Below are positions 9,096 through 64,000 of a stretch of 64,000 nt of DNA, piece after piece; positions within the stretch are counted from its first letter, which is position 1, and every line of letters begins with the position of its first letter. Position numbers and translations under genes: made by a program. The notes beneath the pieces were generated by a model that worked only from the letters and a program-made list of their open reading frames with translations, made no database searches and had not been told where the DNA came from. The stretch spans positions 16,315 to 80,314 of the forward strand of contig JAHEXG010000002.1 in NCBI GenBank assembly GCA_023252215.1, given 5' to 3'. The DNA comes from Candidatus Altiarchaeales archaeon (GTDB taxonomy: Archaea > Altiarchaeota > Altiarchaeia > IMC4 > QMZM01).

Positions 9096-9167
9096 CTTAT
9101 TTCTTTTTTATAACTGTAGGTATTGTCATTGAATTTTTATTCTTTGAATACGTTATGTGTATAATAG

Positions 9168-43312: not shown

Positions 43313-43380
43313 CTTTTTATGCATTGAAGCAAATATAATAGTAGTATTACGAAATTGTAAATAGTATTACTGGTGAAAAT

Positions 43381-43674: not shown

Positions 43675-43680
43675 AAAAAA

Positions 43681-44016
43681 ATGGCATGTTTTAGCGCACC
43701 AACGGCCGTTGCTATTGTTACAACGGCCTGCAGGAAAAAGATACCGGAAAAGTACCACATAAACTGGCTTAACGCGATGCTCTGGGGAGGAACCGCAGGG
43801 CTGGCATTGGAACACGTCGCCCACGGGGAGATAGTGCCCTATTTCCCCTTTCTGACGGCCATGAAGAGCGCACAGGATACCGCAGTCATGTTCCAGGAGA
43901 TATTGACCGTAGGAGTCGGTATGCTTGTCGTCTGTTTGATCGTCTGGGCATTAATGGTGTTCGTTGCCTGGAAATTAGAGGCAAAGGCCAAAAACGTAGT
44001 TACGCAGGCGGTATAA
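43681..44016 (+). CDS. Small membrane protein (paralog B)
   Basis: 111 aa. Paralogous to the preceding gene, 7-nt spacer. Confidence 0.5.
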   Translation: MACFSAPTAVAIVTTACRKKIPEKYHINWLNAMLWGGTAGLALEHVAHGEIVPYFPFLTAMKSAQDTAVMFQEILTVGVGMLVVCLIVWALMVFVAWKLEAKAKNVVTQAV

Positions 44017-46665: not shown

Positions 46666-46741
46666 AATTGTAATTGTGTTTTGAGAGTATAAAAAATTCC
46701 CAAAAACCTTTATTTCCTTTTGGTCTCCCATAAAATAACCT

Positions 46742-47497
46742 ATGAAACTCAAAAACAAGGTCGCAATAATCACAGGCGCATCCTCCGGCATCGGCCGGGC
46801 CATCGCAGAGCTTTACGCCGCAGAAGGGGCAATGATCGCGGTCGCAGACCTGGACGAAACAGGCGGCACTGAGACAGTTGATATCGTCAGGGAAAAAGGA
46901 GGATATGCCTTATTCGTAAAAACGGACGTATCCAAAGCCCGCGAAGTTGCCAGCATGGCCAGACAGGCCATGGAAAAATACGGCAGAATAGACATACTGG
47001 TGAACAACGCAGGGATCGAAGGAAAAAGCGCCTTAACCGCAGACTACCCGGAAGAAGACTGGGACAGAGTCCTTGCAGTGAACCTGAAAAGCGTTTTCCT
47101 ATGCTCTAAATACGTCATACCAGAGATGTTCAAGAACTGCCAGGGAGCGATCGTAAACATATCTTCCATCGCAGGCATGACGGCATTCCAAAAAGCCCCG
47201 GCATACGCAGCATCCAAGGCAGGAATAATAGCGCTGACACGCTCTATGGCAATCGAATACGCGCCGAACAACATCAGGGTGAACTGCATCTGCCCCGGCA
47301 TAATCAAGACCCCTATGGTGGAAAGGTCCACGAAAGGAAGCCTGGACGCCGAAAGAAAACTCATAAGAGAAGAACCCCTTGGAAGGATCGGCAAACCGGA
47401 AGAAGTCGCCAACGCGGCACTCTACCTCGCATCCGACGACTCATCATACGTAACAGGCTCAGCCCTTGTAGTAGACGGGGGCTGGACCATCAAATAA
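46742..47497 (+). CDS. SDR family oxidoreductase (FabG-like)
   Basis: TGASSGIGRA cofactor motif, NNAG, YxxxK catalytic (YAASK). Confidence 0.85.
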   Translation: MKLKNKVAIITGASSGIGRAIAELYAAEGAMIAVADLDETGGTETVDIVREKGGYALFVKTDVSKAREVASMARQAMEKYGRIDILVNNAGIEGKSALTADYPEEDWDRVLAVNLKSVFLCSKYVIPEMFKNCQGAIVNISSIAGMTAFQKAPAYAASKAGIIALTRSMAIEYAPNNIRVNCICPGIIKTPMVERSTKGSLDAERKLIREEPLGRIGKPEEVANAALYLASDDSSYVTGSALVVDGGWTIK

Positions 47498-47514: not shown

Positions 47515-48519
47515 CTAACACACCCTTGGCACGGGATCCCCCACAGGGGATTCAAGCAATCGTTCGCCGCCTACCGAAGTTTCCAGGATCACGCGGCCCC
47601 GGCCCTTCTTTGCCTCGCCTATTAAGGCGGCGTCTCTCCCGTATTTCGTCTTCTTCAGCGCTGCAAGGACCTTTTTCGCATCCTCCGGGGCAACGCCGAT
47701 AACAGCTTTGCCTTCGTTGGCGACAGACAAAGGATCCAGCCCAAGCATCTCCGATGCTGCGCGCACGCCGTCACGCACAGGTATGGAATCCTCATCCAAA
47801 AAAACATCCAACTTCGCTTTAGACGCCATCTCATTAATGCAACTAGCAAGGCCGCCCCGGGTCGGATCCTTCAATGCGTGCAAGTCGTATTTCAAGACCT
47901 TCTCGATCATCGGCCAAAGAGGCGCACAATCCGATACAAGCGACGATTCAAACTCTATTCCCTCACGATGAGACATTACCGCAATGCCATGGTCCCCGAC
48001 CGGCCCGCTTACTATCACCTTGTCTCCGGGACGCAGGCCGGCATCAGAGACCACCTTCTTTGCAACGCCCAGGCCAGCGGTGTTGACGAGCAGGCCAATA
48101 TCGCCGTCCACGACCTTTGTATCCCCGGTAACGATCGGAACACCTATTTCTCTTGAGACAGCATCCATGGACTCAACGATCCTGTGCAGATCAGCTATCG
48201 GAAAACCCGCGCCCACGATGAACGCAGACGAGATCGCAACAGGCCGGCCGCCCATCATGGACAGGTCGTTAATAGTCCCGCACATGGAAAGTTTCCCTAT
48301 GTCTCCGCCGGGAAAGAAGACAGGTTTTACAATGTATGAATCGGTAGTGAACACAAGGTGCTCGCCCTTGAAAGGAATCGTCGCGGCATCGTCCAGTTCT
48401 GCGAGGCCTATCCCCCCGGCAACGTTCTTTTTAGAGATCTTCTTGAGCAGGACTGAAAGCAGGCCATGCATCGCCTCCCCCCCGCCCCCGTGAACCAGCT
48501 TGATTTTCTCGTCTTTCAT
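47515..48519 (-). CDS. hypE: Hydrogenase maturation protein HypE
   Basis: N-terminal HGGGG, AIR-synthase-like fold, C-terminal PRVC. Confidence 0.85.
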   Translation of the reverse strand: MKDEKIKLVHGGGGEAMHGLLSVLLKKISKKNVAGGIGLAELDDAATIPFKGEHLVFTTDSYIVKPVFFPGGDIGKLSMCGTINDLSMMGGRPVAISSAFIVGAGFPIADLHRIVESMDAVSREIGVPIVTGDTKVVDGDIGLLVNTAGLGVAKKVVSDAGLRPGDKVIVSGPVGDHGIAVMSHREGIEFESSLVSDCAPLWPMIEKVLKYDLHALKDPTRGGLASCINEMASKAKLDVFLDEDSIPVRDGVRAASEMLGLDPLSVANEGKAVIGVAPEDAKKVLAALKKTKYGRDAALIGEAKKGRGRVILETSVGGERLLESPVGDPVPRVC

Positions 48520-49169
48520 TTCCTCTTTTCTTTTTCCTTCTTTATCCAGTCCGCGAACTCGTCTATGCCCATGTCTTTGCGGATGCTGGTCATGAATACC
48601 CTTAATTTAGAATTGATATGCAGCGCATCCCTTCTCATCTTCTCCGCATCCGCGCCCACTGCATCCGCGATGTCTATCTTGTTGATTACCGCGGCATCCG
48701 AGGACACAAATATCATCGGGTGCTTCTCCACGGTATCGTCGCCTTCGGAAACGGAAACAATGGTCACATTAAGCTGCGTACCAAGAACGAAATCCACGGG
48801 ACATATCAGATTACCCACGTTCTCGACGAAAAGGATGTCAATGTCTTTCAGATCAAAATGATCCGCAGCATGCTCCACAAGATGCGCGTCCAAATGGCAC
48901 TCCCTGCCGGTGTTCACGCCGAGGACCGGGATCCCCAATTTCTTCAACCGGTTCGCATCGAGGTCGCTTATTATGTCTCCGGCGATGGCCGCGATCCTGT
49001 ATCCTATGAGCTTTTTATGGAGGACCTCGATCATCGCAGTCTTGCCCGAGCCGATAGCGCCCATGAAATTTATCGCAAGCACCCCGGCTTCGTCGAATGT
49101 CTTACGATTGCGCTCCGCTATCTTATTGTTTATCTCGAAAACGTCCTTGTCCATGCCGATGACGTGCAT
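48516..49169 (-). CDS. hypB: Hydrogenase nickel incorporation GTPase HypB
   Basis: P-loop GAIGSGKT, GTPase G-domain. ATGA overlap with hypE. Confidence 0.85.
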   Translation of the reverse strand: MHVIGMDKDVFEINNKIAERNRKTFDEAGVLAINFMGAIGSGKTAMIEVLHKKLIGYRIAAIAGDIISDLDANRLKKLGIPVLGVNTGRECHLDAHLVEHAADHFDLKDIDILFVENVGNLICPVDFVLGTQLNVTIVSVSEGDDTVEKHPMIFVSSDAAVINKIDIADAVGADAEKMRRDALHINSKLRVFMTSIRKDMGIDEFADWIKKEKEKRK

Positions 49170-49270: not shown

Positions 49271-49564
49271 ATGAAAACCCTCAACGAGATTATGGTCGTA
49301 TTATCCGCTCACAGAGAAGAGCTTTCCAATCATTTTAGAGTGAAAAATGTGGGAATCTTCGGATCATACGTCCGAGGAGAGCAGAATAAGGGCAGCGACC
49401 TTGACGTTCTGGTGGAATTCGATGAACCTGTGAGCCTTCTAGGCTTAGCCAGGGTTGAGAATTTTTTGGGTGATCTTTTGGGTTTGAAGGTTGACGTAGT
49501 GCCTAAAAAAGACATCAGGCCGGAACTTCGCAAGAGGATTCTTGCAGAGACGGTGTTTGTATGA
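49271..49564 (+). CDS. mntA: MntA-type minimal nucleotidyltransferase (antitoxin of HepT/MntA pair)
   Basis: GIFGSYVRGEQNKGSDLDVLVEF (GS-x9-D-x-D). Confidence 0.75.
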   Translation: MKTLNEIMVVLSAHREELSNHFRVKNVGIFGSYVRGEQNKGSDLDVLVEFDEPVSLLGLARVENFLGDLLGLKVDVVPKKDIRPELRKRILAETVFV

Positions 49565-49833
49565 AAAGGGATGCGTCCATCTATCTAGGCGATATTTTGG
49601 AGAACCTTGACAGAGCCACAGAATTCGTCGGAGGCATGAGCTATGAAGACTTTGAATGCGACGAGAAGACTTTTTATGCTGTTGTCAGATGTATCGAAAT
49701 AATCGGCGAAGCTTCCAAAAACCGGCCTAACGACGTAAGGAAAGATTACCCGGATATACCCTGGAGAGACATTGCAGGGATGCGAGACAAGGTCATACAT
49801 TCCTATTTTGGAGTGAATCCACACAGAGTCTGA
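49561..49833 (+). CDS. hepT: HepT-type HEPN toxin (DUF86)
   Basis: R-x4-H-x-Y motif RDKVIHSY. ATGA overlap with mntA. Confidence 0.75.
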   Translation: MKRDASIYLGDILENLDRATEFVGGMSYEDFECDEKTFYAVVRCIEIIGEASKNRPNDVRKDYPDIPWRDIAGMRDKVIHSYFGVNPHRV

Positions 49834-49915: not shown

Positions 49916-50278
49916 TTATTCCGCAGTTATCTCCTTGATCATGCATTCCCTTCCGCCCAAAGGCTTGGCGACTTCCCCGCATACCGGGCATTTCAGCCTC
50001 CGGGTCAGGGAATACACATCCTTCTTTTCAGGCATTATTTCGCTTACGTGCTTTTTTTGGCACTCGATCTTCAGAGGCAGTATCCTGCACTCGACCTTCG
50101 CTCCTTGCGCAGCAGTCCCCTCGATCAGTATCTCTAAAGCGAATACTAATTGGTCGACGCTTATCATCGACAATTGCCCGATCTCCAGGACGATCTTTGT
50201 AACCTTCTCTGCGCCGTGCTTCTTTGATTCTACGAGCACGCTTTCTACTATCCCTGAAGCTACGGAAAATTCGTGCAT
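49916..50278 (-). CDS. hypA: Hydrogenase nickel insertion protein HypA
   Basis: MHEFS N-terminus. C-terminal CPVCG zinc site. Confidence 0.8.
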   Translation of the reverse strand: MHEFSVASGIVESVLVESKKHGAEKVTKIVLEIGQLSMISVDQLVFALEILIEGTAAQGAKVECRILPLKIECQKKHVSEIMPEKKDVYSLTRRLKCPVCGEVAKPLGGRECMIKEITAE

Positions 50279-50279
50279 C

Positions 50280-51359
50280 TTATTTTCTGCCGTATTTGTA
50301 GGCGATGTGGCATGATCCTTCTCCCGATACCATGCACGGCCCGACCGGGTCGTCCGGCGTGCATCTTTCGGCGAACAGCGGGCAGTCGGCGGGATAGGCT
50401 ATCCCTTTTAGTATCTTTCCGCACGCGCAGCCCTTGGGCTCAGGCGCTTCTTTCACGTCTATTCGGAATTTTATGCGGGCGTCGTGTTCGCCGTATTCTT
50501 CTTTGATCGCGAGGCCCGATCCGGGTATCGCGGGAAAGCCGCGCCATTTTACGTCGCATGGCTCGAATACTTTTTCCAACACGTCCAGTGCTTTCTTGTT
50601 TCCATCCTCTTTCACGACGCGCGAGTACTCGTTCCGAACGCCGTGGTCTTTTTGTTTTATCATCTCCAAGAGGAGCAGTACTCCGTACAGCACGTCCACT
50701 GGCTCGAATCCTGCGACCACTTGGGGTACTTTGTATTTCTCGCCGACCGAACGGTATGGGCCCAGGCCGATTATCGCTGAAACGTGCCCTGGGTCGATGA
50801 ATCCGTTTATTTTTGTGTCTCCTTCCGAGAGCAGGAAATCCATCGCAGGGGGAATAGTCCTATGGCATGAGAGCACGTAGAAGTTCTCAGGAGCGGAAAG
50901 CAACTCCACCGCAGTTGAGGGGGCTGTTGTCTCAAAGCCTATCCCGACGTGTACGACCTCTTTTCCGGGAAGTTCTTTTGCCAGTTTCACGGCGTCGGTT
51001 ATGGAGTAGACTATTCGCACCTCGGCCCCTTCTGATTTCGCTTCCGCCAGAGATGATGCGCTTCCCGGAACCTTCAACATGTCCCCGAATGAAGTAACGC
51101 ATGCGCCTTCTTTTGCCAGGGCGATAGCCTCATCTATCTCCTTTGCAGTTATGACGCAGACAGGGCAGCCCGGCCCGGATATTATTTCCATATTGTCAGG
51201 GAGAAGGGAGCGGATGCCTGCTTTTGCGATAGCGTCCTCGTGCGTGCCGCAGACATGCATCAGGCGCACAGGGCCCATACCGGATGCAGTGCCGCAAATC
51301 TTTGCGACTATCTTTTCCGCCAGCCTGCGGTCCCGGAATCCTGCGAGATCCTTATCCAT
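50280..51359 (-). CDS. hypD: Hydrogenase maturation protein HypD
   Basis: CGTHE, GPGCPVCV and C-terminal CPxxC motifs. Confidence 0.85.
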   Translation of the reverse strand: MDKDLAGFRDRRLAEKIVAKICGTASGMGPVRLMHVCGTHEDAIAKAGIRSLLPDNMEIISGPGCPVCVITAKEIDEAIALAKEGACVTSFGDMLKVPGSASSLAEAKSEGAEVRIVYSITDAVKLAKELPGKEVVHVGIGFETTAPSTAVELLSAPENFYVLSCHRTIPPAMDFLLSEGDTKINGFIDPGHVSAIIGLGPYRSVGEKYKVPQVVAGFEPVDVLYGVLLLLEMIKQKDHGVRNEYSRVVKEDGNKKALDVLEKVFEPCDVKWRGFPAIPGSGLAIKEEYGEHDARIKFRIDVKEAPEPKGCACGKILKGIAYPADCPLFAERCTPDDPVGPCMVSGEGSCHIAYKYGRK

Positions 51360-51564
51360 CGGCTATCTCCTCCAGTATCTTCAAGGTCTCCTTGGCATCC
51401 TTTTCGTCGAGTACCTCTATTGCATATCCTGCATGGACTATGACGTATTCTCCGGGCTTAACGCTTACAAGGTCTACTTTGACGGTCCTGCGAATCCCTC
51501 CAAAGTCTACGGAAGCTTCTTTTCCCCGTATTTCAAGGACTATTCCAGGTATGGCAAGGCACAT
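51352..51564 (-). CDS. hypC: Hydrogenase maturation protein HypC
   Basis: MCLAIP N-terminus, 70 aa. Confidence 0.85.
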   Translation of the reverse strand: MCLAIPGIVLEIRGKEASVDFGGIRRTVKVDLVSVKPGEYVIVHAGYAIEVLDEKDAKETLKILEEIADG

Positions 51565-51613
51565 CTTAAGTTCTCCAATGATTTATCACTATAATTCATA
51601 TAACATTGGAATC

Positions 51614-53866
51614 ATGCGCAAAAAAGCCGTAATAGAGATATCAGGAACCGTGCAGGGAGTGGGTTTCCGCCCTTTCGTCTACCGCAGCGCAGGCAGCCTC
51701 GGAATAACGGGACAGGTCAAAAACCTCGGAGACGCAGGAGTAGAGATAATAGCCGAAGGAAACGAGGAATCCATAAAAAAACTCGTAGAGAAGATAAAGA
51801 AAGAAAAGCCCGTGAACGCCGGAATAGAGAGCATCAGAGTGCGCTGGACGGGCTACTCTCCCAAGCACAAGGATTTTCGCATAGTCCACAGCGACGGCAC
51901 AGGGCTTGGAGGAAAGATCATCCCGGATTACGGCATCTGCGATGCGTGCCTAAAAGAAGTCAGGAAAAAGAGCGACCGGCGATACCGCTACCCGCTCATC
52001 TCCTGCACAGACTGCGGCCCCCGTTTCACTGTCCTGCAGAAAATGCCCCTGGACAGGAAGAACACGTCCTACAAAAAATTCGCTCCATGCACCCGCTGCG
52101 AACACGAATACTCGGACCCCGAAAACAGGAGATTCTACGCCCAGACCATCGCCTGTCCCGTGTGCGGACCAGATTATTCCTTACTAGACAGCGTAGGCAG
52201 AAATAGCCCAAGACCGATAGAAACAGCAATACAAAAACTGAAGGAGGGACAGATACTTGCAATAAAAGGCGTCGGAGGAATGCACCTAGCCTGCCTGACA
52301 AAAAATGATACGGCAGTTTCGGAATTGAGAAATAGACGGCAGCGGCCATCGCAGCCTTTCGCAGTCATGGCTTCCCTGGAGATGATCAGGAAATTCGCGC
52401 AGGTCTCCCGTATGGAAGAAGCGCTACTCACTTCAAAGGAAAAGCCCATAGTCGTACTAAGAAAAAGCGCAGGCTACGGCCTGTCCGATCATGCAGCCCC
52501 GGGGCTTGAGAACATCGGAGTGATGCTTCCGTATACCGCTTTACATCACCTCCTCTTTGCGAGAATAAACGAGCCATTGATCATGACGTCTGCCAATCCC
52601 CGCGGCGAACCGATGATAAAGGACAACAGGGAGATATTAAAAAACAAGGCCGCAGACTACTATCTGCTACACGATCTGCGGATAATGAACCGGTGCGACG
52701 ACTCGGTGATAAAGATTGTGAACGGCAGGCCTGCTTTCATCCGCAGGAGCAGGGGGTACGTCCCAAGGCCGGTGAAACTCGAGAACCCGGACGGGAAGAC
52801 GGTTCTTGCTCTTGGCGCGGGAGAAAATGTTTCATTCTGCCTGCTCAAAGGAAACGATGCGTTCCTCAGCCAGCATATAGGGAACACGGAAAATCTGCGG
52901 ACGATGGAGTACCTGCAGGAAGCGATTGAAAACTTTATCAGGTTAATACCCTCAAGAATAGATGCCATCGCCTGCGACCTGCATCCCTCATTTAATACGA
53001 CGAAACAGGCCGCGCAATTAGGAGAAAAATATGGCGTTCCCGTAACCCGCGTCCAGCACCATCACGCGCATCTGTTATCCCTTGCGGGAGAACATGTTCT
53101 GGAAAAACTCGTCGGGATCTGCTGCGACGGCGTAGGCTACGGCACCGACGGAAAGGCGTGGGGCGGGGAAGTGTTCACGCTCAGGGACAAAGAGATAAAA
53201 AGGATAGGGCATCTGAAAGAACAATCCATGCCCGGCGGAGACCTCGCGGCACATTACCCGGCGCGGATGGCCGCCGGGATTCTCTACGGAGCATACTCAT
53301 ATGACGAGCTGCAGAACATCCTCTCGGACCTGTATTACAAACACGGGAAAAAAGAGATGGAAATCGTCCTTGCACAGTTGGAAAATGGAATAAACGTGCA
53401 GAAGACTACGTCGACAGGCAGGGTGCTTGACGCGGCAGCATCTTTGCTCGGAGTCTGCCATTATAGGACATACGAAGGAGAGCCTGCGATGAAACTGGAA
53501 GCGGCAGGGAGGGGAGGAAAAGACCTGCATTTTCCGGTAGTAACGAAGAAAGGCATATTGGACACATCAGCACTTTTGAAAGAGGTCGTGGAAGCAAAGA
53601 AAGAACACAAAACAAGAGACATCGCCTACTCACTGGAGACCGCGCTTGCAAGGGGGCTTGCGAGGATAGCTGTAACTGCTGCGCAAAAAGACCGTATCAG
53701 CACCATAGGAGTGTCGGGGGGCGTAGCCTACAACGACGTATTCGTCAGGGCCGTTGCAGAATATGTTAAAAGAAGCGAACTGGGATTCGTGCAGAACGAA
53801 CGGGTGCCGTGCGGAGACGGAGGGATTTCATACGGGCAGGCTGCGTATTACAAAAAAATATGCTGA
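51614..53866 (+). CDS. hypF: Carbamoyltransferase HypF
   Basis: Acylphosphatase domain GTVQGVGFRPFVY. Two CxxC-x18-CxxC zinc fingers. YrdC-like and Kae1-like domains. True start MRKKAVIEISG at 51614; the track ORF from 51284 is over-extended. Confidence 0.9.
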   Translation: MRKKAVIEISGTVQGVGFRPFVYRSAGSLGITGQVKNLGDAGVEIIAEGNEESIKKLVEKIKKEKPVNAGIESIRVRWTGYSPKHKDFRIVHSDGTGLGGKIIPDYGICDACLKEVRKKSDRRYRYPLISCTDCGPRFTVLQKMPLDRKNTSYKKFAPCTRCEHEYSDPENRRFYAQTIACPVCGPDYSLLDSVGRNSPRPIETAIQKLKEGQILAIKGVGGMHLACLTKNDTAVSELRNRRQRPSQPFAVMASLEMIRKFAQVSRMEEALLTSKEKPIVVLRKSAGYGLSDHAAPGLENIGVMLPYTALHHLLFARINEPLIMTSANPRGEPMIKDNREILKNKAADYYLLHDLRIMNRCDDSVIKIVNGRPAFIRRSRGYVPRPVKLENPDGKTVLALGAGENVSFCLLKGNDAFLSQHIGNTENLRTMEYLQEAIENFIRLIPSRIDAIACDLHPSFNTTKQAAQLGEKYGVPVTRVQHHHAHLLSLAGEHVLEKLVGICCDGVGYGTDGKAWGGEVFTLRDKEIKRIGHLKEQSMPGGDLAAHYPARMAAGILYGAYSYDELQNILSDLYYKHGKKEMEIVLAQLENGINVQKTTSTGRVLDAAASLLGVCHYRTYEGEPAMKLEAAGRGGKDLHFPVVTKKGILDTSALLKEVVEAKKEHKTRDIAYSLETALARGLARIAVTAAQKDRISTIGVSGGVAYNDVFVRAVAEYVKRSELGFVQNERVPCGDGGISYGQAAYYKKIC

Positions 53867-54065
53867 TTTTTGAATTCGATATCGGCATTTTCTTTTTCCA
53901 TTGATAACTTTTTTTCACCTGTTCATTTACTTTCTAAACTTTTTTTCGCTATCCTACGAGTTGTTTTTTTCTTTCTTTAAATTTTTGTCTTCCATTATAT
54001 ATTTGTTTAATCGCATTATTGTAATGATTAATCATTATAATTAATCACTTAACCAGGTGAAGTAA

Positions 54066-56204
54066 TTGAAAGTATTCCTTTACGACTTCGGCGGAGAGAT
54101 AAAGTACCCGGAGAACCTAGACTTCGGGAAGGACGTAGAGATCATCCGCCTGAAAGACATATCCACCGAAGAGACGCGCCGCACAGTTGAAAAGGCGCTC
54201 AAAACAGACAAGGTCGTATTCGTAGGGCCAAGCCACCGCATATCCGAAAGATTTTTTTCCGATCCGAACATAAAGTTCGTGAACGCGCGGGAACATGTGG
54301 CATGGGTGGGCCATAACCCGGAAAAGATAAGGGACCTCGTACAGGGTTCCATAGACAAATTACGTAACTCAAATAAAATAGAGAATAAGCGTTTTCTCAT
54401 AAAGCACAAAAGCGCGCTGGTCATAGGGGCCGGGATAGCCGGCCTGGAAACCGCGCGACAGATAGCTAATTCCGGATACAAGGTATACTTGATAGAGAAG
54501 AAACCATTCGTCGGGGGGCTTGTGGCCCGCCTGGACAGGCTGTATCCTGCGGGGACGCCCAACTCCCATATTCTTTACCCGCTCATAAACGAAGTAGTCA
54601 GCAACCCGAATGTAGAGGTCCTCGTGAACACGGAAATGGAAAAAGCCGAGGGCACCGTGGGGGACTACGCGGTAAAGCTGAAGATCAAAGGAAACGTCGT
54701 CGAAGGAAAATTGCCTAAAAAATGCGAGGAAGTCTGCCCTGTAGAAGTCGTGGATAAGATACCGCGCAAGGCGATATACTATCAGCCCACTTATCCTGAA
54801 TCGTACGGCATAGACTTCGATGCCTGCACCAAATGCGGTAACTGCGTGAAAGTAATGCCGGAACTATCCCTTGGAGAGACTGAGAGAACCATACACGTAG
54901 GCGCGATAGTCGTCGCAACCGGGCTCAAGGGGTATGACGCAAAAAGGATAGTCGAATACGGCTACGGCAGGTACCCCAACGTATACACGAAGCTGGAATT
55001 CGAAAGAAGATTCGCAAACGGCCTCATAAAGCCCAAGAGCGTAGTCATCGTGAACTGCGCAGGATCGCGCGACAAGAATCACCTGCCTTACTGCTCCAGA
55101 GTCTGCTGCATGCTCGGCCTTAAGGCAGCAAAACTCATAAAGGACACAGCCCCCGAAACCGAGGTCTACGTAAATTACATAGACATGCGAAGCTACGGCA
55201 TATTCGAGGAATTCTATAACATCGTACGCGAAACATACGGCGTAAAATTCGTGCAGGGACGCCCCTCGGAGATACTCCAGGACGCGGACGGAAAACTCGT
55301 TGTAAGATGCGAAGACATCCTCCTGGACAAGAACATCGAGATGAAAGTAGATTGCGTAGTCCTCATGACAGGCTTCGTCCCGGACAAGGAATCATTCGAC
55401 AAACTCGGGATATACACCGCAGGAGCATACCCGGTAGAATACGTAAACTCCACATACTCAATAGACTCGAATCCCAGGGGAATATTCATCGCAGGCTCCG
55501 CAGGCTACCCCAAAGACGTAGCCGAGATACTGATAAACGCGGCAAACGCCCCCGGCGGAGTCATCGAAATACTGAGCAAAGACTACGTAGAAAACAAGAC
55601 ACCAACCGCGAAGATCGACTCCAGGATATGCAGCGAGAACAACTGCAGGATATGCATCACGGCCTGCCCATACGGCGCAGTGCACATGAAAGGAGAGGAG
55701 GTAGTAGTCAATGAGGAAGTATGCATGGGCTGCGGCATATGCACTGCCACCTGCGCCGCAGGAGCAAACCAGCTCCAGGGATTCGAAGAAAAGGGAATGC
55801 TCGCACAGATAGGAGGCATGACCAAAAAAGGGGACGTGATCGCTTTTATGTGCAAGTGGAGTTCCTACAACGCCGCGGACAAGGCGGGACAGGAGCGCCT
55901 GACCTACCCCGAGAACGTAAAGATAATACGCGTGCCATGCACGGGCCGTGTCTCCGCGCAGATGATACTCAAATCCTACGAATCCGGCGCGAAGGCGGTC
56001 CTGGTCGCAGGCTGCCCGCCGGACGCATGCCACTACTTCACTGGCAACTTCAAGGCAAGAAAAAGGATAACCGCATTAAAGGCCATGCTTTCCCAGTTCG
56101 GCATAGATCCCGAAACGCTAGCGATCGAATGGATAGGAAAAGACGAGTCAAAGAAATTCGCGGAGACGGTAACGAGACTGAACGGATTAAAACAGCAAAA
56201 ATGA
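54066..56204 (+). CDS. hdrA: Heterodisulfide reductase subunit A-like flavoprotein with C-terminal MvhD domain fusion
   Basis: FAD motif VIGAGIAGLETA. Multiple 4Fe-4S Cys clusters (CTKCGNC, CSENNCRIC, CMGCGIC). C-terminal MvhD-like domain (CKWSSYNAADKAG...VPCTGRVS...CPPDACHY). TTG start. Confidence 0.8.
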   Translation: MKVFLYDFGGEIKYPENLDFGKDVEIIRLKDISTEETRRTVEKALKTDKVVFVGPSHRISERFFSDPNIKFVNAREHVAWVGHNPEKIRDLVQGSIDKLRNSNKIENKRFLIKHKSALVIGAGIAGLETARQIANSGYKVYLIEKKPFVGGLVARLDRLYPAGTPNSHILYPLINEVVSNPNVEVLVNTEMEKAEGTVGDYAVKLKIKGNVVEGKLPKKCEEVCPVEVVDKIPRKAIYYQPTYPESYGIDFDACTKCGNCVKVMPELSLGETERTIHVGAIVVATGLKGYDAKRIVEYGYGRYPNVYTKLEFERRFANGLIKPKSVVIVNCAGSRDKNHLPYCSRVCCMLGLKAAKLIKDTAPETEVYVNYIDMRSYGIFEEFYNIVRETYGVKFVQGRPSEILQDADGKLVVRCEDILLDKNIEMKVDCVVLMTGFVPDKESFDKLGIYTAGAYPVEYVNSTYSIDSNPRGIFIAGSAGYPKDVAEILINAANAPGGVIEILSKDYVENKTPTAKIDSRICSENNCRICITACPYGAVHMKGEEVVVNEEVCMGCGICTATCAAGANQLQGFEEKGMLAQIGGMTKKGDVIAFMCKWSSYNAADKAGQERLTYPENVKIIRVPCTGRVSAQMILKSYESGAKAVLVAGCPPDACHYFTGNFKARKRITALKAMLSQFGIDPETLAIEWIGKDESKKFAETVTRLNGLKQQK

Positions 56205-57190
56205 CAGGAAAAGAAAAGCTAAAGATCGCCATATGCCGGGGATGCACATGCTCAGGCTGCGACATAGCGATACTCGACATACACGAGCGCCTGCTTAAAG
56301 TGATCGAGAAGGCGGACATAGTATACGCTCCGACCATCATGGATGCGAAGAATGCGGACGTTGAGAAAATGAAAGACCGGGAAATAGACGTCTGCTTCTA
56401 TCACGGCGCGGTCCGCGATTCCGACAACGAGGAGCTTGCACGTTTGCTGCGCAAAAAGTCCAAGATAATGATAGCCTTCGGCGCATGCGCCTGCTTCGGC
56501 GGAATATTCGGCCTTGCGAACACCACCAACAGAAAGGAGATATTCGAAGAAGTCTATAAGAACACAGCCTCCACCGACAATCCTGAGGGCATAATGCCCC
56601 AAACGGAATACGCGGACAAGAAAGGACACACAATGACCCTGCCGGAGATCTACGACAGCGTCTATCCACTGAATGAAAAAGTAGCCGTCGACTACTACAT
56701 CCCGCTGTGCCCGCCGATACCGGACCAGATAATGACGGGACTTGCCGCCATCACCTCAGGGAACCTCCCCCCAAAAGGAACGATACTCGCATCAGAAAAA
56801 ACGCTATGCAGCGAATGCGAAAGAACAAGGTCCCAGGTCAGGAAGATAGGCAAGATACACCGCCCCCACGAAATAGAAATCGACCAAGAGAAGTGCATGC
56901 TGGACCAGGGACTATTATGCATGGGCCCCGCGACGAGAGCCGGCTGCGGGACTATCTGCGTGAAGGCGAACGTGCCATGCCGCGGCTGCAACGGCCCCAC
57001 GAGCCAGGAATACGACCAGGGAGCAAACATGCTCAGCCTCGTTGCCACGATATACGGAATACCCGAAGAATCGCTCACAGAAGAAGACGTAAAAAAGGCG
57101 ATGAAAGAAATAAAAGACCCGCTGGGAACTTTTTACAGATACACGTTGCCTACGTCGATACTGAAAAGAAAAAGGATGGACGGAAAATGA
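56201..57190 (+). CDS. mvhG: [NiFe] hydrogenase small subunit (MvhG-like)
   Basis: N-terminal CRGCTCSGCD, further FeS Cys clusters. ATGA overlap with hdrA. Track ORF from 55721 is over-extended. Confidence 0.8.
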   Translation: MTGKEKLKIAICRGCTCSGCDIAILDIHERLLKVIEKADIVYAPTIMDAKNADVEKMKDREIDVCFYHGAVRDSDNEELARLLRKKSKIMIAFGACACFGGIFGLANTTNRKEIFEEVYKNTASTDNPEGIMPQTEYADKKGHTMTLPEIYDSVYPLNEKVAVDYYIPLCPPIPDQIMTGLAAITSGNLPPKGTILASEKTLCSECERTRSQVRKIGKIHRPHEIEIDQEKCMLDQGLLCMGPATRAGCGTICVKANVPCRGCNGPTSQEYDQGANMLSLVATIYGIPEESLTEEDVKKAMKEIKDPLGTFYRYTLPTSILKRKRMDGK

Positions 57191-58662
57191 CGGAAAAGAA
57201 AAAGCAGATCACGATCAACCCGGTCACCCGGCTCGAAGGCCACGCGAAAATAGATATCTTCCTGAATGACGAAGGCAACGTGGAGGATGCATATTTCCAG
57301 GTAATCGAGCTGCGGGGCTTTGAAAAATTCTGCCAGGGCAGGCCTGCCGAAGAGATGCCGAGGATCGCGCCTCACATCTGCGGAGTGTGCCCTAACCCGC
57401 ATCACATGGCCTCCGGGAAGGCGGTCGACATGGTGTTCGGGGTCGAAGCGACCGAGACTGCAAAGAAACTGCGGGAACTGTCTCTCTGCGCGCACTATGT
57501 GCACAGCCACATAGCGCACTTCTACGCACTTGCCGGACCAGACTTTATCGTGGGGCCGGCTGCGCCAGCAAAAGACCGGAACATCATCGGAGTAATAAAC
57601 AAAGTAGGGGTGAAGATAGGCGGGGACGTAATACAAGCCCGCGCCTATGCGCAGAAGATACAGGCGATCATCAGCGGCAGGGCGACTCATCCGATAAACA
57701 ACCTTCCGGGAGGGCTTGCTAAGCCCATCACTGCCGAAGAGCAGAAGGAGATCGAAAGGATGAGCAAAACTTTGGTGGACTTCGGGAAATTCACGCTCCA
57801 GATATTCGAAGACGCCGTAGTCAAGAACAAGGCATACGCAGACATAATAACAGGGGACATATACCGGCACAGGACGTATTACATGGGCACGGTCGACAAA
57901 AACAACAAGGTAAATTTCTACGACGGAGCTATACGCGTGGTCGACCCGGAAGGAAAAGAATACGAAAAATTCCGCGGAGAAAAATACCTGGACCACATCG
58001 CAGAGCACGTGGAGCCCTGGACCTACCTCAAATTCCCATACCTCAAAAATAAAGGATGGAAGGGCATAGTCGACGGAAAAGAATCAGGAGTATACCGCGT
58101 CGCACCGCTGGCCCGGCTGAACGCCGCAGACGGCATGGCGACTCCGCTCGCGGACGAGGCATACCAAAAGATGTACGAGACCCTTGGAGGAAAACCGGTC
58201 CATGCAACGCTTGCGATGCACTGGGCCAGGGTCATAGAGATAATGTACGCGGCAGAGAGGATAAAAGAACTGGTAGAAGATCCGCAGATAACGGACACGG
58301 ACGTGCGCAACATCCCAACGGATGTCGTGGGCGTAGGCATAGGCCAGGTTGAAGCGCCCCGCGGAACGCTGTTCCACCACTACTGGACAGACGACGACGG
58401 CATGATCACCAAATTGAACATACTCGTCGCCACGGGAAACAACAATGCTGCGATCTGCATGTCCGTAAAGCGCGCTGCCGAGAAACTGATAAAGAACTGG
58501 AAGGTAGACGACGGCATATTGAACATGATAGAGATGGCGTTCCGGGCGTACGACCCATGCTTCGCATGCGCTACTCACACGCTGCCAGGGCACATGCCTT
58601 TGGAGATCAGGATCTTTGACTCCGGGAAAAACTTATACAAGACAATATCGCGTTATGAATAA
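57187..58662 (+). CDS. mvhA: [NiFe] hydrogenase large subunit (MvhA-like)
   Basis: RLEGH and CGVCP N-terminal Ni-site motifs. C-terminal DPCFACATH with a cleavable extension. ATGA overlap with the small subunit. Confidence 0.85.
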   Translation: MTEKKKQITINPVTRLEGHAKIDIFLNDEGNVEDAYFQVIELRGFEKFCQGRPAEEMPRIAPHICGVCPNPHHMASGKAVDMVFGVEATETAKKLRELSLCAHYVHSHIAHFYALAGPDFIVGPAAPAKDRNIIGVINKVGVKIGGDVIQARAYAQKIQAIISGRATHPINNLPGGLAKPITAEEQKEIERMSKTLVDFGKFTLQIFEDAVVKNKAYADIITGDIYRHRTYYMGTVDKNNKVNFYDGAIRVVDPEGKEYEKFRGEKYLDHIAEHVEPWTYLKFPYLKNKGWKGIVDGKESGVYRVAPLARLNAADGMATPLADEAYQKMYETLGGKPVHATLAMHWARVIEIMYAAERIKELVEDPQITDTDVRNIPTDVVGVGIGQVEAPRGTLFHHYWTDDDGMITKLNILVATGNNNAAICMSVKRAAEKLIKNWKVDDGILNMIEMAFRAYDPCFACATHTLPGHMPLEIRIFDSGKNLYKTISRYE

Positions 58663-59110
58663 CAAGACACTCGTGCTAGGCGTAGGAAATCCCATACTGG
58701 GAGACGACGGAGTAGGCATACATGCGGTAAGGGAGCTTAGAAAAGACGCAGGCTGCGCAGATTTTGAGGAGGCGCCCGTCTCAAGCCTGGAACTGGTGGA
58801 AATGTTCCTAGGATACGAGAAAGTCATAATCGTCGACGCAGTAAAAACAAGGGAAGGCGTCCCGGGAAAAATATACGAACTATGCGGGGAGGATATGCCT
58901 ACCCTGCACGGCCTGTCCCCGCACGACGTGGACTTTCATACCGCACTGGAATACGGGAAAAAATTCATGGGACAGATGCCGAAGATAACGATATACGGCA
59001 TCGAAGCCGCAAACGTAACGGACTTTGGCGAAACGCTCAGCCCAAAGGTCGAGGAATCTCTTCGTTTAGTCATAGAAAAAATCAAAAAAGAAATCAAAGA
59101 TGGATCTTAG
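58655..59110 (+). CDS. Hydrogenase maturation endopeptidase (HycI/FrhD-like)
   Basis: VLGVGNPILGDDGVGIHAV N-terminus typical of hydrogenase C-terminal proteases. Overlaps mvhA by 8 nt. Confidence 0.75.
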   Translation: MNNKTLVLGVGNPILGDDGVGIHAVRELRKDAGCADFEEAPVSSLELVEMFLGYEKVIIVDAVKTREGVPGKIYELCGEDMPTLHGLSPHDVDFHTALEYGKKFMGQMPKITIYGIEAANVTDFGETLSPKVEESLRLVIEKIKKEIKDGS

Positions 59111-59543
59111 GGAAGAACTCAAAAGCGAAATAGACGGCAAGACCATAAGCTATTGCTTCAGCTGCGGCATGTGTACCGGAGGCTGTCCCTCGGCCCGCCT
59201 GAACGAAAAATACAATCCCAGAAGGATACTCCACCGCGCAGTCATAGAAGGAAAAATCGAGAACGACATCTGGCTCTGCACCAACTGCTACACATGCCAG
59301 GAACGCTGCCCCACAAAGACCAAAGTCGCGGACATTATCAGCTTCATGCGCAGGATATACGTCAAAGAAAAAGGCATACCCGAATTCATAAAACCCCTGG
59401 TTACGAATTTGCAGAACTGCGGATTCACTGCCCCCATAGGGGAACTGGAAAACAAGAGACGCGAGCGGATGGGACTTCCCCCGATGAAGACAAACGACGA
59501 AATAAGAAAGATAATAGAGAAGACGGGAGGCGGCGTAAAATGA
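59100..59543 (+). CDS. hdrC: Heterodisulfide reductase subunit C-like (two 4Fe-4S motifs)
   Basis: CFSCGMCTGGCP and CTNCYTCQERCP. Confidence 0.75.
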   Translation: MDLREELKSEIDGKTISYCFSCGMCTGGCPSARLNEKYNPRRILHRAVIEGKIENDIWLCTNCYTCQERCPTKTKVADIISFMRRIYVKEKGIPEFIKPLVTNLQNCGFTAPIGELENKRRERMGLPPMKTNDEIRKIIEKTGGGVK

Positions 59544-60415
59544 AGAACCGCTACGCATATTTCATAGGCTGCACCATACCATTCCGGGCCTCGAACTACG
59601 ACCAAGCCACAAAGAAGGTCGCAGAAAAACTGGGAATAGAACTGACAGACCTCCCGGATGCGGGATGCTGCGGCCTCTATTTTGAGCTCATTAACGAGAT
59701 GACCTATCTTTCCATGGCCGCGCGAGTCCTGTCAATGGCCGAGGAAAAGAAACTAGACCTCATGGTCCTATGCAACGGCTGCAACGGATCGCTTTACCGG
59801 GCCAACAAGAAACTAAAAGAAAACCCGGAACTAAAAGACAAAGTAAACGAAGTGCTTGCAGAAGTAGGACGCGAATACAAGGGCACAATAGAAGTAAAAC
59901 ACCTGATACGCGTGCTATACGAAGACGTCGGGATAGAGAGGATCAGAGAGAAGATAACCAACCCGCTCACGAACGTAAAAGCCGCGGCGCATTACGGCTG
60001 CCACCTGCTCAAGCCGTCCGAGGAGATCATGTTCGACGATCCCCATAACCCGGTAAGCCTTGACCGCTTAATAGAGGTCACAGGAGCAAAGTCCGTGGAC
60101 TACTACGACAAACAGCAATGCTGCGGAGGATACGTCCTCGCCGCGGACGCGAAGACCGCCTACCGCATGACAGGCGAGAAACTGGCCCATGTTAAAGCTG
60201 CGGGAGCAGACATGTTGATCACGGGCTGCCCCTTCTGCAACGTGATGTACGACGCCAACCAAAAGGCTGCGGAAACCGAGACCGGGCAGCAGTATAAGAT
60301 TCCGGTACTGCATTATCCGCAGTTGCTGGCGCTGGCGATGGGGATCGATGCAAAGGAGCTTGGATTCGAGCAGAACCGGGTCAGGCCGGATATGAAGCTC
60401 TTCCTGAAAGAATAA
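59540..60415 (+). CDS. hdrB: Heterodisulfide reductase subunit B-like (two CCG domains)
   Basis: CCG motifs GCCGLYF...CNGC and CCGGYV...GCPFC. ATGA overlap with hdrC. Track ORF from 59153 is over-extended. Confidence 0.8.
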   Translation: MKNRYAYFIGCTIPFRASNYDQATKKVAEKLGIELTDLPDAGCCGLYFELINEMTYLSMAARVLSMAEEKKLDLMVLCNGCNGSLYRANKKLKENPELKDKVNEVLAEVGREYKGTIEVKHLIRVLYEDVGIERIREKITNPLTNVKAAAHYGCHLLKPSEEIMFDDPHNPVSLDRLIEVTGAKSVDYYDKQQCCGGYVLAADAKTAYRMTGEKLAHVKAAGADMLITGCPFCNVMYDANQKAAETETGQQYKIPVLHYPQLLALAMGIDAKELGFEQNRVRPDMKLFLKE

Positions 60416-61947: not shown

Positions 61948-62238
61948 TCATGCGTAGACTACCTCTCTCAAAACTCTGTCCCTCATCTGTGTTTTGAGGG
62001 CTTTAACGGTAACAAGATCCACCGTGATCCCAAGGATCTCTTCCAGGTACTCTTTAAGGTCAAGGAACTCCCATCCAATTGGTTTGGAAAACTCTACGAG
62101 AATGTCCACGTCGCTTTTGCTTCTGGCCTCTCCACGGGCATAGGAGCCGAAGACGCCTATCTCTTTGACATTGAATTCCTTTTTCAAAAAAGGCTTACTC
62201 TTCTTGAGCGTTTCCTCGATGTCGCTGAGAGTTTTCAT
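61948..62238 (-). CDS. Orphan MntA-type nucleotidyltransferase (no adjacent HEPN partner)
   Basis: GVFGSYARGEARSKSDVDILVEF. Only 20 bp separate it from the MFS gene start, leaving no room for a HEPN ORF. Confidence 0.7.
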   Translation of the reverse strand: MKTLSDIEETLKKSKPFLKKEFNVKEIGVFGSYARGEARSKSDVDILVEFSKPIGWEFLDLKEYLEEILGITVDLVTVKALKTQMRDRVLREVVYA

Positions 62239-62474
62239 GGATATTTATCATTGGTAAAAGCGATTAAAATACGGTAAATAGTAATCCTTTCTTCGGTTTA
62301 GACCGAATGAAAGAGGAGGAGTTTTTATATTACGGCAGAACATAGCATAACATGAGAAATAGCTTGCTCTTGGCCTATTCCCTACTAGTCACCGGAGTCC
62401 TGGCAATAGTAGTGGTGGGTTATATGTTCAGAGATATGATCGCCGGGATAGGGTTCCCTTTTTAGTTTACTTAT

Positions 62475-62810
62475 TTATTTCTCCACTGCGCCTTTCCAGG
62501 AGCGCATGCCTCCGCTCATTATCCTCACCCGGTATCCTTTGTCTTTGAGCATCTTTGCCGCGACTCCCGCCCGGCCTCCGGAAAGGCATATTGCCAGTAT
62601 CTTCTGGTCTTTTTTGAGTTCTTGCAGCCTGCTGTGCAGGGCGGACAGGGGTATGTTGACTGCTCCGGGTATGTGTCCCTGCAGGTATTCGTCCTCTTCG
62701 CGCACGTCTAGTATGAGGCATTCTTTCCGGTACTCGGCCAGGTTTGTTTCGACCTTTGCCGCATCGAGGTCTGAGTCGACGCCAAGCATTTTATCGGCCA
62801 TTTGTTTCAC
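62475..62810 (-). CDS. Rhodanese-like domain protein
   Basis: Single rhodanese domain with active-site-loop Cys in ICLSGGRAG. Confidence 0.75.
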   Translation of the reverse strand: MKQMADKMLGVDSDLDAAKVETNLAEYRKECLILDVREEDEYLQGHIPGAVNIPLSALHSRLQELKKDQKILAICLSGGRAGVAAKMLKDKGYRVRIMSGGMRSWKGAVEK

Positions 62811-64000
62811 CTCAAGCTGCTCACAGTATTGGTCCCCTCGGGTATCACCAATACTTTTGCGTCTTTTCCGTGCTTTTTGAAAGCCTGCTGCAATGCTTCG
62901 TCCGCGGTCTTCGCATACTTGAACCGGTACAGGTTCTCTACTACGTCTTTTGACATGGCGGAAACAAGGTAGATATCCGCCTTCTCCACAGCCAAAAGAT
63001 TGTAGTAGGCCTTGTGCCCGCCGATGTTAAATTCCCGGTCCAGTTCCGATCTCATCTCTTCCTTGGTCTTGTATTTCTTCATCCAGGACTCATAATTCCG
63101 GTTACCAGGGCCTTCAGGGCACTCCGCAAGAAGGATTATCGATCCTCTGTCTTTTACGACCGCCAGCGCAAGATGCAGCGCCTTGTATGCCTGGTATAGG
63201 TCTATGTCGTGCGGAGATCCGCTCGCAGAAGTGATCACGATGTCTGCTTTTTCCCCGGCCTTGGCCATGTATATCTTCTCGACCAGCGATGCGCCCTTTT
63301 TCAGTACGAGGTCAAAGTCTCCGCTATACGCGCCTACTATGCCTTTTTCATCCTGCACTACGTTTATCGTATAGTCCACTTTGGCTAAGCGCGCAGCTTC
63401 GGTCATGTTCTCATACATCGGATTCCCGTCCAGTTTGGCCGGCCGGGCGTCCGGGGAAAAAAAGTTGCGCTTGTAGTTGTCCTGTATCGTGGCATAATTT
63501 ACGATGCCTGGAAGGATGCTTTTACGTCCTCCGCCGTAGCCTGCAAAATAGTGTATCTCCACGTCGCCTGTCAATATCTTTACGTCTGCGTCGTAGAAAG
63601 CTTTTTTAAGCATGACTTTTGTCCCTCTCTTAGTCGTGCCGATGTCCACGAAATCATTGCCCAATGAATCGTTGCTTATGTATCTTATCCTCGAAGCAAT
63701 GTCCTTTCCAAGCAGTTTCCCGGCTTCCTCCTTTGTCGTCGTCCTGTGGCTTCCAGTCGCAAATATAATAAGTATGTTCTCGTCTCTGACGCCCGCGGAA
63801 TACAATTCCTCCAAAAGGAATGGAAGCATCTTGTCAGTGGGACAAGGCCTGGTGTGGTCGTCGACGACTACTGCGACAACGTCTTTTTTCTTTTTCGCCT
63901 TCACTATGTCCGAAAGTTTCTTTGTACCGTCCGGATTCTGCAGCGCATTCCTTATCAATTGCTCAGGCGTCTCCTTTACATTGTATTCGGCAGGCCGCAG
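62807..64000 (-). CDS. LarA-like (lactate racemase family, nickel-pincer cofactor-dependent) protein, 5' end beyond window
   Basis: DUF2088/LarA-like N-terminal region (DDHTRPCP, ...ATGSHR...). ORF continues past position 64000. Overlaps the rhodanese gene by 4 nt. Confidence 0.6.
   Translation of the reverse strand: MRPAEYNVKETPEQLIRNALQNPDGTKKLSDIVKAKKKKDVVAVVVDDHTRPCPTDKMLPFLLEELYSAGVRDENILIIFATGSHRTTTKEEAGKLLGKDIASRIRYISNDSLGNDFVDIGTTKRGTKVMLKKAFYDADVKILTGDVEIHYFAGYGGGRKSILPGIVNYATIQDNYKRNFFSPDARPAKLDGNPMYENMTEAARLAKVDYTINVVQDEKGIVGAYSGDFDLVLKKGASLVEKIYMAKAGEKADIVITSASGSPHDIDLYQAYKALHLALAVVKDRGSIILLAECPEGPGNRNYESWMKKYKTKEEMRSELDREFNIGGHKAYYNLLAVEKADIYLVSAMSKDVVENLYRFKYAKTADEALQQAFKKHGKDAKVLVIPEGTNTVSSLR

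Follow-up and report, generated by a model that had tools for sequence, protein, structure and literature searches.

A 64,000-nucleotide (nt) stretch of a Candidatus Altiarchaeales archaeon contig (JAHEXG010000002.1), hereafter the window, carries six co-directional open reading frames (ORFs) on the + strand (54066-60415) in the order hdrA-mvhD, mvhG, mvhA, protease, hdrC and hdrB. Together these probably encode a cytoplasmic Mvh-type (group 3c-like) [NiFe] hydrogenase bound to an HdrABC-type disulfide reductase, i.e. an H2-dependent disulfide reductase in which the HA3 -> HA5 -> HA6 route would be unusable. The predicted cofactor equipment supports H2-dependent disulfide reduction well and leaves canonical electron bifurcation doubtful. 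An earlier note on this DNA had described the locus as a complete electron-bifurcating unit; the six subunits are indeed present, but two of the three low-potential [4Fe-4S] clusters have no ligands and a cysteine pair of methanogen HdrA is absent family-wide, and the bifurcating part of that description is not supported in the form given.

Each of the six proteins was matched by Pfam or NCBIfam models and by solved structures, in agreement with the gene identities and order given in that note, and the best solved relative of each was the corresponding subunit of a methanogen Mvh/Elp/Fdh-Hdr complex. The core of the first protein (residues 66-586) matched solved HdrA chains (8rvu_a, E = 6e-95; 5odc_A, E = 3.5e-89), and its C-terminal domain is MvhD, as had been proposed: the FlpD/MvhD family (PF02662) was detected at residues 591-705 (E = 1.9e-41) of one uninterrupted ORF, and the domain aligned without gaps to free MvhD chains (5odc_D, E = 8e-30; 9sw2_D, E = 4.5e-30). 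An AlphaFold2 model of the fusion protein, generated with 97 sequences, reached a predicted local distance difference test score (pLDDT) of 91.4 and a predicted TM-score (pTM) of 0.89, and superposed best on full-length HdrA chains. The hydrogenase small subunit MvhG matched 5odc_E (E = 1.3e-69), PF01058 (Oxidored_q6) and, with 224 bits, the VhuG model NF045875. The large subunit MvhA (NiFeSe_Hases and VhuA models; best solved match 5odc_F, E = 1.5e-119) displays the Ni-Fe ligands Cys65/Cys68 (HICGVC) and Cys458/Cys461 (DPCFACATH), the latter motif being followed by a C-terminal extension of 27 residues, which explains the dedicated endopeptidase (TIGR00072 over its full length, E = 2.5e-32; PF01750, HycI) found, as the note had it, between mvhA and hdrCB. 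HdrC (8rvv_C, E = 1.4e-22; TIGR03290, 101 bits, under the cutoff of 160) contains two CxxCxxCxxxCP motifs (Cys19-29 and Cys60-70), and HdrB (9sfi_C, E = 1.9e-80; 5odc_B, E = 5.7e-77; TIGR03288, 329.9 bits against a cutoff of 345) contains two complete CCG motifs (C11, C43C44, C78xxC81 and C154, C194C195, C230xxC233), which constitute the predicted disulfide-reducing site. All NCBIfam methanogen equivalogs scored below their cutoffs (score/cutoff: HdrA 386-391/1300-1400; HdrB 136/450; HdrC 55-101/160-350; VhuA 398/800; VhuG 224/450). A role for selenocysteine, raised in the earlier note as a point to check, found no support: none of the six genes needs an in-frame TGA, every ORF being uninterrupted, and an Rfam scan of the window for a selenocysteine insertion sequence (SECIS) returned two tRNAs only. 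The positions that hold selenocysteine or cysteine in methanogens are cysteine in MvhA (DPCFAC), Pro165 in HdrA, and Met595 and Ser599, with Cys596 kept between them, in the MvhD domain.

To delineate the cofactor sites of HdrA, the window protein was compared with solved HdrA chains, as was a profile of 15 family members, and a family alignment of 100 members of about 700 residues was assembled, in which invariance was judged on 97 sequences. The low-potential electron path to ferredoxin runs through the clusters HA3, HA5 and HA6 (PMC6019823), of which HA3 (also A3), in the N-terminal domain, is the proposed shuttle between the flavin adenine dinucleotide (FAD) and HA5 (PMC13518236, PMC13580544). 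In the window protein the fold of the N-terminal domain is present, and its four HA3 ligand positions are occupied by Tyr6, Phe8, Ser33 and Pro55, i.e. none is cysteine. The family profile aligns this domain to solved HdrA, with the third and fourth ligand cysteines (CS..., CSPR) matching in the 8rvu/8rvv alignments, while the profile match to 5odc_A and 9sfi_A begins at profile position 4. Across the family all four cysteines are found in 79 of the 100 members, the first two only in nine, and none in eight (the window protein and P0001-P0007). The inserted ferredoxin domain, which in the solved enzymes carries HA5 and HA6, keeps five of eight cysteines, namely Cys224, Cys254, Cys257 and Cys260, all four invariant, and a vestigial Cys220; missing are the two leading cysteines of motif 1 and the final one of motif 2, where Met264 now stands. 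This is apparent in the alignment to 5odc_A/8rvu_a, where CTGCGxCxEVCP stands against GKLPKKCEEVCP and CxxCxxCxxVC against CTKCGNCVKVM. The domain would accordingly ligate one cluster only, the lost cluster being that bound by the first CxxCxxC motif, for which the name HA6 would be a guess. Given that HA3 and one inserted-domain cluster are without ligands, any coupling to ferredoxin could not use the HA3 -> HA5 -> HA6 route.

A second set of changes concerns the entry of electrons into HdrA. The cysteine pair of methanogen HdrA (Cys202/Cys205 in M. marburgensis, with selenocysteine at U197 in M. maripaludis; PMC13580544, PMC13518236) is replaced here by Pro165 and His168 in the motif GTPNSH, and both residues are invariant in 97 of 97 aligned family members. 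This pair has been proposed to aid, together with a Cys, a His and an Asp of MvhD, the electron transfer from MvhD to FAD (PMC13580544). The additional methanogen residues of MvhD are also replaced, Cys12 by Met595, Cys16 by Ser599, His68 by Pro651 and Asp71 by Ala654, in ungapped alignments to 9sw2_D, 5odc_D and 8rvu_F. The [2Fe-2S] ligands of the domain (Cys596, Cys625, Cys650 and Cys655) are kept in invariant columns. Equally intact in HdrA are the GxGxxG motif of the FAD site (GAGIAG), Lys353 and Glu313, whose counterparts are Lys409 and Glu356 (PMC12054007), the HA4 ligands Cys331, Cys343, Cys347 and Cys348 (CxGxRD...CSxxCC) and the eight cysteines of the C-terminal ferredoxin domain; the GAGIAG motif, Lys353, Glu313 and the HA4 ligands are invariant in the 97 sequences.

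Thus, all cofactor sites are present for a chain from H2 via the Ni-Fe site of MvhA, the clusters of MvhG and the [2Fe-2S] cluster of the fused MvhD domain to the FAD of HdrA, and for the high-potential route that leads on from there through HA4 and HdrC and ends at the two CCG sites of HdrB, where methanogen Hdr binds its disulfide-reducing non-cubane clusters. In the mechanism we propose, H2 would be oxidised at MvhA, electrons would pass through MvhG and the MvhD domain to the HdrA flavin and on through HA4 and HdrC, and a disulfide would be reduced at the CCG sites of HdrB. The six genes would be expressed as one transcript from the upstream spacer, with the internal genes that have no ribosome-binding motif translated by termination-reinitiation at their overlaps, and the embedded protease presumably trims the MvhA tail. 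What became of the ferredoxin branch is harder to say. That it was rewired, by way of the single invariant cluster left in the inserted domain, falls just short of an even chance; outright loss of the branch, leaving a non-bifurcating enzyme, is a reading that can be offered tentatively and is only slightly less likely, and other possibilities share the small remainder.

The distribution of the substitutions shows that the low-potential clusters were lost stepwise and in a nested fashion within Altiarchaeota, so that the loss is no noise but an evolutionary change. With the cysteine columns in question masked, a neighbour-joining tree nests the states of the N-terminal and inserted domains, from four of four and eight of eight cysteines in most bacterial members and the basal altiarchaeal P0017-P0020, through two of four and six of eight (five of eight in one member) in P0008-P0016, to none of four and five or four of eight in the window clade. 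The substitutions are common to eight proteins drawn from NCBI, ENA, JGI and Logan. Between the window protein and P0007 the N-terminal domain is 68% and the inserted domain 65% identical, as against 76-84% for the other domains; these two domains of the same electron branch diverge fastest, and therefore eroded together. That an altiarchaeal sub-lineage in this way converted a bifurcating Mvh-Hdr to an H2:disulfide oxidoreductase that is non-bifurcating or wired differently, by stepwise loss of HA3 and of one exit cluster with all else kept, is a scenario we advance with some hesitation, holding it to be possible rather than probable. Inserted-domain cysteines were lost independently in some bacterial subclades. 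A bacterial set of HdrA-MvhD proteins of about 540 residues (P0105-P0116; L029, L031-L033) has no N-terminal domain at all and represents a second, independent way of being without HA3.

The alternative that survives best is a canonical, complete bifurcating Mvh-Hdr, in which H2 reduces both ferredoxin and heterodisulfide and the ferredoxin feeds the Wood-Ljungdahl pathway. The presence of all six subunit types, the best solved matches to Mvh-Hdr components and the conserved Lys/Glu pair at the bifurcating flavin are what this alternative would predict; moreover, many Altiarchaeota possess an archaeal Wood-Ljungdahl pathway, for which reduced ferredoxin is required (PMC8407392, PMC4943185), and the relatives with full cysteine sets (P0017-P0021 and bacterial members) could well work in this manner. 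For the window enzyme itself we nevertheless consider it unlikely, though deserving of serious weight, given the loss of all four HA3 ligands and of three of the eight inserted-domain cysteines, the replacement of Cys202/Cys205 by Pro165/His168 and of MvhD Cys16, His68 and Asp71 by Ser, Pro and Ala, the scores under the cutoff for every NCBIfam methanogen equivalog, and a host that is not a methanogen. Certain observations weigh against our own preference for an H2-dependent disulfide reductase with an unusable HA3 route. One inserted-domain cluster is invariant and Lys353/Glu313 are kept, suggesting that some electron path through the inserted domain is still of importance. Methane-metabolising archaea, too, have HdrA classes of reduced cluster number and putative function (PMC12054007); given that such reduced classes exist, cluster loss alone is no proof that bifurcation was lost. 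The HA3 shuttle model is itself a proposal derived from cryo-electron microscopy states, and our interpretation is one drawn from sequence comparison.

Two further alternatives appear very improbable. The first is a genuine reductase of the heterodisulfide of coenzymes M and B (CoM-S-S-CoB) serving methane or alkane metabolism. The HdrB score with TIGR03288 lies close to its cutoff and methanogen HdrB chains are matched with E-values of 2e-80 to 6e-77, but the host belongs to Altiarchaeota, described as having neither MCR nor MTR (PMC4943185), the closest non-altiarchaeal homologues, from metagenome-assembled genomes (MAGs) of WOR-3, Stahlbacteria, TA06, Edwardsbacteria and Clostridia, do not come from methanogens, and no methanogenesis-related gene is present in the 64 kb window, whose remaining genes are housekeeping genes. 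CoM-S-S-CoB is an unlikely substrate in this host. The second is operation in the H2-evolving direction, in which reductant from thiols and/or ferredoxin would be disposed of as H2, by confurcation or by simple thiol:H+ oxidoreduction. Sequence does not fix the direction, and group 3 [NiFe] hydrogenases are often bidirectional, but making H2 from thiols is endergonic unless a low-potential co-donor takes part, and it is the ferredoxin branch that has eroded. Least probable of all is a decaying or non-functional locus in which the cysteine losses mark the onset of pseudogenisation: it would account for the stepwise ligand loss and the faster divergence of two domains, but was rejected given that none of the six full-length ORFs contains a frameshift or an internal stop, that every other cofactor site is invariant, and that the Cys-less form persists in eight proteins that are 77-92% identical to that of the window, and in species with about 80% DNA identity (L001, L002) whose operon and hyp genes are intact.

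Several known systems can be compared with the H2-dependent disulfide reductase proposed here. The MvhAGD-HdrABC complexes of Methanothermococcus thermolithotrophicus (5ODC) and Methanothermobacter marburgensis (9SW2-9SW6) consist of the same six families and share with it the Ni-Fe ligands, the MvhD [2Fe-2S] ligands, the FAD site with its Lys/Glu pair, HA4, the C-terminal ferredoxin domain, the HdrC clusters and the two HdrB CCG motifs. Unlike them, the window has MvhD fused to HdrA, all genes including that of the protease in one operon, no polyferredoxin gene, an HdrA without HA3 and one inserted-domain cluster, replacements of the HdrA Cys/Sec pair and of MvhD Cys16/His68/Asp71, and a host that is not a methanogen. 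In methanogens hdrA and hdrCB are encoded separately. Their mvhDGAB genes form a gene cluster of their own (PMC13580544). The HdrA-MvhD fusion is a described subclass in Bacteria and Archaea, known as HdrA2 (PMC5296606) or 'type Ia', with several origins (PMC12054007). It is exemplified by HdrA2B2C2 of Methanosarcina acetivorans, in which HdrA bears a C-terminal MvhD domain as in the window. The HdrA2 model (NF040770) is the best NCBIfam match of the window protein, but the score of 523 bits against a cutoff of 1100 indicates that it is no orthologue. The four [4Fe-4S] clusters and one [2Fe-2S] cluster predicted for the window HdrA equal the count reported for HdrA2 (PMC5296606, PMC12054007). 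HdrA2 receives electrons from F420H2 or ferredoxin with no hydrogenase co-encoded, whereas in the window mvhG and mvhA directly follow hdrA.

Among non-methanogens, the Mvh:Hdl complex of Archaeoglobus (A. fulgidus AF1372-AF1377; A. profundus, Mander et al. 2004) has likewise been described as a soluble hydrogenase/Hdr-like complex; it is encoded by six co-located genes in A. fulgidus and has a proposed role in supplying ferredoxin for the acetyl-CoA pathway (PMC3949148, PMC4943185). The closest non-altiarchaeal HdrA proteins (44-53% identity) come from the bacterial MAGs named above. Those of WOR-3, TA06, Stahlbacteria and related bacteria are, like the window protein, HdrA-MvhD fusions of about 700 residues with a GTPNSH-type motif (Pro and His invariant) in place of CxxC, and the WOR-3-related bacteria also encode the system as a single co-directional cluster with the protease. 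Unlike the window, WOR-3 and TA06 have the order hdrC-hdrB-hdrA/mvhD-mvhG-mvhA-protease with spacers of 110-180 nt, and most WOR-3-related bacteria keep four of four N-terminal and eight of eight inserted-domain cysteines. An mvhADG-hdrABC set has been reported for WOR-3 (PMC12542636). The sHdr system of sulfur oxidisers (6TJR type), with its short HdrA-like protein and no hydrogenase partners, can be excluded for the window, where 6tjr_A matches residues 276-495 only (E = 2e-32) and mvhG and mvhA are present.

As an operon the locus carries little weight, having the standard hdr/mvh layout of Altiarchaeota and belonging to a known fusion class; what is new is the loss of low-potential clusters in HdrA. 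The earlier note had recommended the arrangement for lineage inference, with methanogens as the frame of reference. That frame is inapplicable, given that the methionyl-tRNA synthetase and the closest genomes are altiarchaeal and that the lineage is reported to have neither MCR nor MTR (PMC4943185), and the inference needs correcting: rather than a methanogen, the operon indicates Altiarchaeota and an exchange group that includes WOR-3-like bacteria. The case also cautions against labelling such loci 'electron-bifurcating' or 'CoB-CoM heterodisulfide reductase'. Orthologues with four, two or none of the four HA3 ligands offer a natural mutant series for the disputed shuttle-cluster model and for the need for the cysteine pair; L005 (Altiarchaeales ex4484_96) and L006 (B22_G2) are examples with four ligand cysteines, and L004 is one with two. 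If bifurcation was indeed lost or rewired, it raises the question of how Altiarchaeota that are autotrophic by the Wood-Ljungdahl pathway obtain reduced ferredoxin.

The features of the locus are collected in Table 1.

Table 1. Operon genes, HdrA domains, upstream spacer and hydrogenase maturation (hyp) genes in the window
Feature	Coordinates	Strand	Remarks
hdrA-mvhD fusion gene	54066..56204	+	712 amino acids (aa), TTG start
HdrA N-terminal domain, residues 1-100	54066..54365	+	without [4Fe-4S] (HA3/A3) ligands
HdrA inserted ferredoxin domain (HA5/HA6), residues 208-275	54687..54890	+	one cluster site left
MvhD domain, residues 590-705	55833..56180	+	[2Fe-2S] ligand Cys kept
mvhG, [NiFe]-hydrogenase small subunit	56201..57190	+	329 aa, 16 Cys
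mvhA, [NiFe]-hydrogenase large subunit	57187..58662	+	491 aa
Hydrogenase maturation endopeptidase	58655..59110	+	151 aa
hdrC	59100..59543	+	147 aa
hdrB	59540..60415	+	291 aa
Non-coding spacer hypF-hdrA, sole one of the locus	53867..54065	+	presumed promoter and 5' leader
hypF	51578..53866	+	762 aa; Pfam Acylphosphatase, zf-HYPF, Sua5, HypF_C; boundaries from L071 gene call
hypC	51352-51564	-	Pfam HypC; L071 gene call
hypD	50280-51359	-	Pfam HypD (E = 4e-143); L071 gene call
hypA	49916-50278	-	Pfam HypA; L071 gene call
hypB	48516-49169	-	Pfam CobW/HypB
hypE	47515-48519	-	Pfam AIRS/AIRS_C

The six genes make five junctions, all of them overlapping: three (hdrA/mvhG, mvhG/mvhA and hdrC/hdrB) are 4-nt ATGA overlaps, and the remaining two measure 8 nt (mvhA/protease) and 11 nt (protease/hdrC). 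The count of four consecutive ATGA junctions plus two others in the earlier note was thus a miscount. Its view of the operon as tightly coupled is borne out, in that the packing is close enough for translational coupling and a clear Shine-Dalgarno-like motif is seen only at hdrA (AGGTGA, 6 nt before the TTG) and hdrB (GGGAGG). The reading frames, for which the note had suggested resequencing, hold in a second, independent assembly: over 13,375 nt the Logan assembly of SRR14366796 (L071) shows 99.97% identity and zero gaps, and the genes called on it separately encode the same six products with the same overlaps, so that the frames are no assembly artefact. Overlaps of this kind are a habit of the genome and nothing special to the hdr/mvh operon, other co-directional pairs nearby being spaced by -8 nt (hypC/hypD), +1 nt (hypD/hypA) and -4 nt (MNT/HepT). 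Orthologous junctions in eight Altiarchaeota loci mostly range from -14 to +9 nt, the outliers being +27 nt (L006), +452 nt (L036), +616 nt (L002) and one probable boundary artefact (L003). The L036 outlier is a gap of about 452 nt between mvhA and the protease gene (11207-11658 of L036), and that of L002 an insertion of about 616 nt between mvhG and mvhA (11124-11739 of L002). The TTG start of hdrA is kept in L001-L004, L006 and L036. The spacer upstream of hdrA is AT-rich, with the TATA-like stretches TTTAAATTTTTG and TTATATATTTG, and probably serves as the promoter; a bacterial-type promoter and terminator scan, being inapplicable to an archaeon, was left unused. A recent horizontal transfer of the operon was considered and rejected, there being no composition signal: its GC content of 0.51-0.52 and its skew match the rest of the window.

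The compact order stressed in the earlier note is real, but it is not unusual. The arrangement hdrA/mvhD-mvhG-mvhA-(protease)-hdrC-hdrB was found in all eight Altiarchaeota loci, with the protease gene at the same position in seven and absent from L004, and a few uncultured bacteria share it (L029 and L033, and L032 without the protease), their HdrA being shorter and without the N-terminal domain. Given that the layout is common to the eight Altiarchaeota loci and that the HdrA-MvhD fusion is an already described class, the arrangement is typical of the lineage and not new. In one survey 39% of the Altiarchaeota genomes had HdrABC and MvhD, for which a lateral transfer was suggested (PMC8407392); the Altiarchaeales study of Bird et al. 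2016 (PMC4975002) treats hydrogenases in general only, with no description of Hdr, and Altiarchaeota and WOR-3 lie outside the coverage of the bioRxiv paper on HdrA evolution.

Several lines of comparison place the host among the Altiarchaeota and not among methanogens. The closest genomes are MAGs of Altiarchaeia/Altiarchaeota (closest of all JBAQYF01 and CAIYYO01), L001 and L002 with 90% HdrA and about 80% DNA identity and L003-L007 and L036 with 57-70% HdrA identity. The named matches of the methionyl-tRNA synthetase at 56-70% identity are nearly all from Altiarchaeales/Altiarchaeota, the exceptions being one 'Methanobacteriota archaeon' and one 'uncultured archaeon'. Altiarchaeales have been described as possessing the archaeal Wood-Ljungdahl pathway but neither MCR nor MTR (PMC4943185). 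Outside Altiarchaeota, the synthetase (30361-32373, - strand) has its nearest relatives, with about 50-52% identity, in the bacteria WOR-3, KSB1, Hydrothermia and Calditrichia. The nearest Hdr/Mvh outside Altiarchaeota likewise comes from WOR-3, and the affinity of the synthetase could reflect wider gene exchange or a bacterial-type enzyme in Altiarchaeota. Of the two tRNAs in the window, one is a tRNA-Asp (9023-9096, + strand), and the other (8534-8671, - strand; Rfam, 54.6 bits), missed by ARAGORN, is 138 nt long, a length implying an intron-containing archaeal tRNA, which confirms that the window is archaeal.

Upstream of the operon, hypF is divergent from hypC and ends 199 nt before hdrA; its adjacency to hdrA is kept in L001-L004, with a gap of 2.6 kb between the two in L001, and hypE-hypB is syntenic in L001-L003. 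Between hypB and hypA lies a pair of + strand genes with a 4-nt overlap (49271-49833), encoding MNT (97 aa) and HepT-like (90 aa) proteins, which looks like a type VII toxin-antitoxin module; L002 does not have this interval, hypB adjoining hypA. Downstream, on the opposite strand, are a gene for an MFS transporter and, at 61948-63958 (- strand), genes for a nucleotidyltransferase (96 aa; a second one besides MNT), a single-domain rhodanese (111 aa) and a LarA-like protein (383 aa). Of these last three, the LarA-like gene alone is again seen close to the operon in a relative, namely L004. A functional partnership with the rhodanese, whose gene lies 2 kb downstream, was weighed and rejected, since that gene is on the opposite strand and is not kept beside the operon in relatives.

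Elsewhere in the window, ORFs without a Pfam match were noted at 28662-30176, 42299-43069, 44100-45347 and 45835-46803, and the GC content falls to 0.40-0.44 at 40001-44000, with a GC skew of up to +0.22 at 42-44 kb. An ORF of 2650 aa (33564-41516, - strand) probably encodes a cell-surface protein, as suggested by its three Laminin_G_3 (ConA-like lectin) stretches, a cohesin domain and DUF2341.

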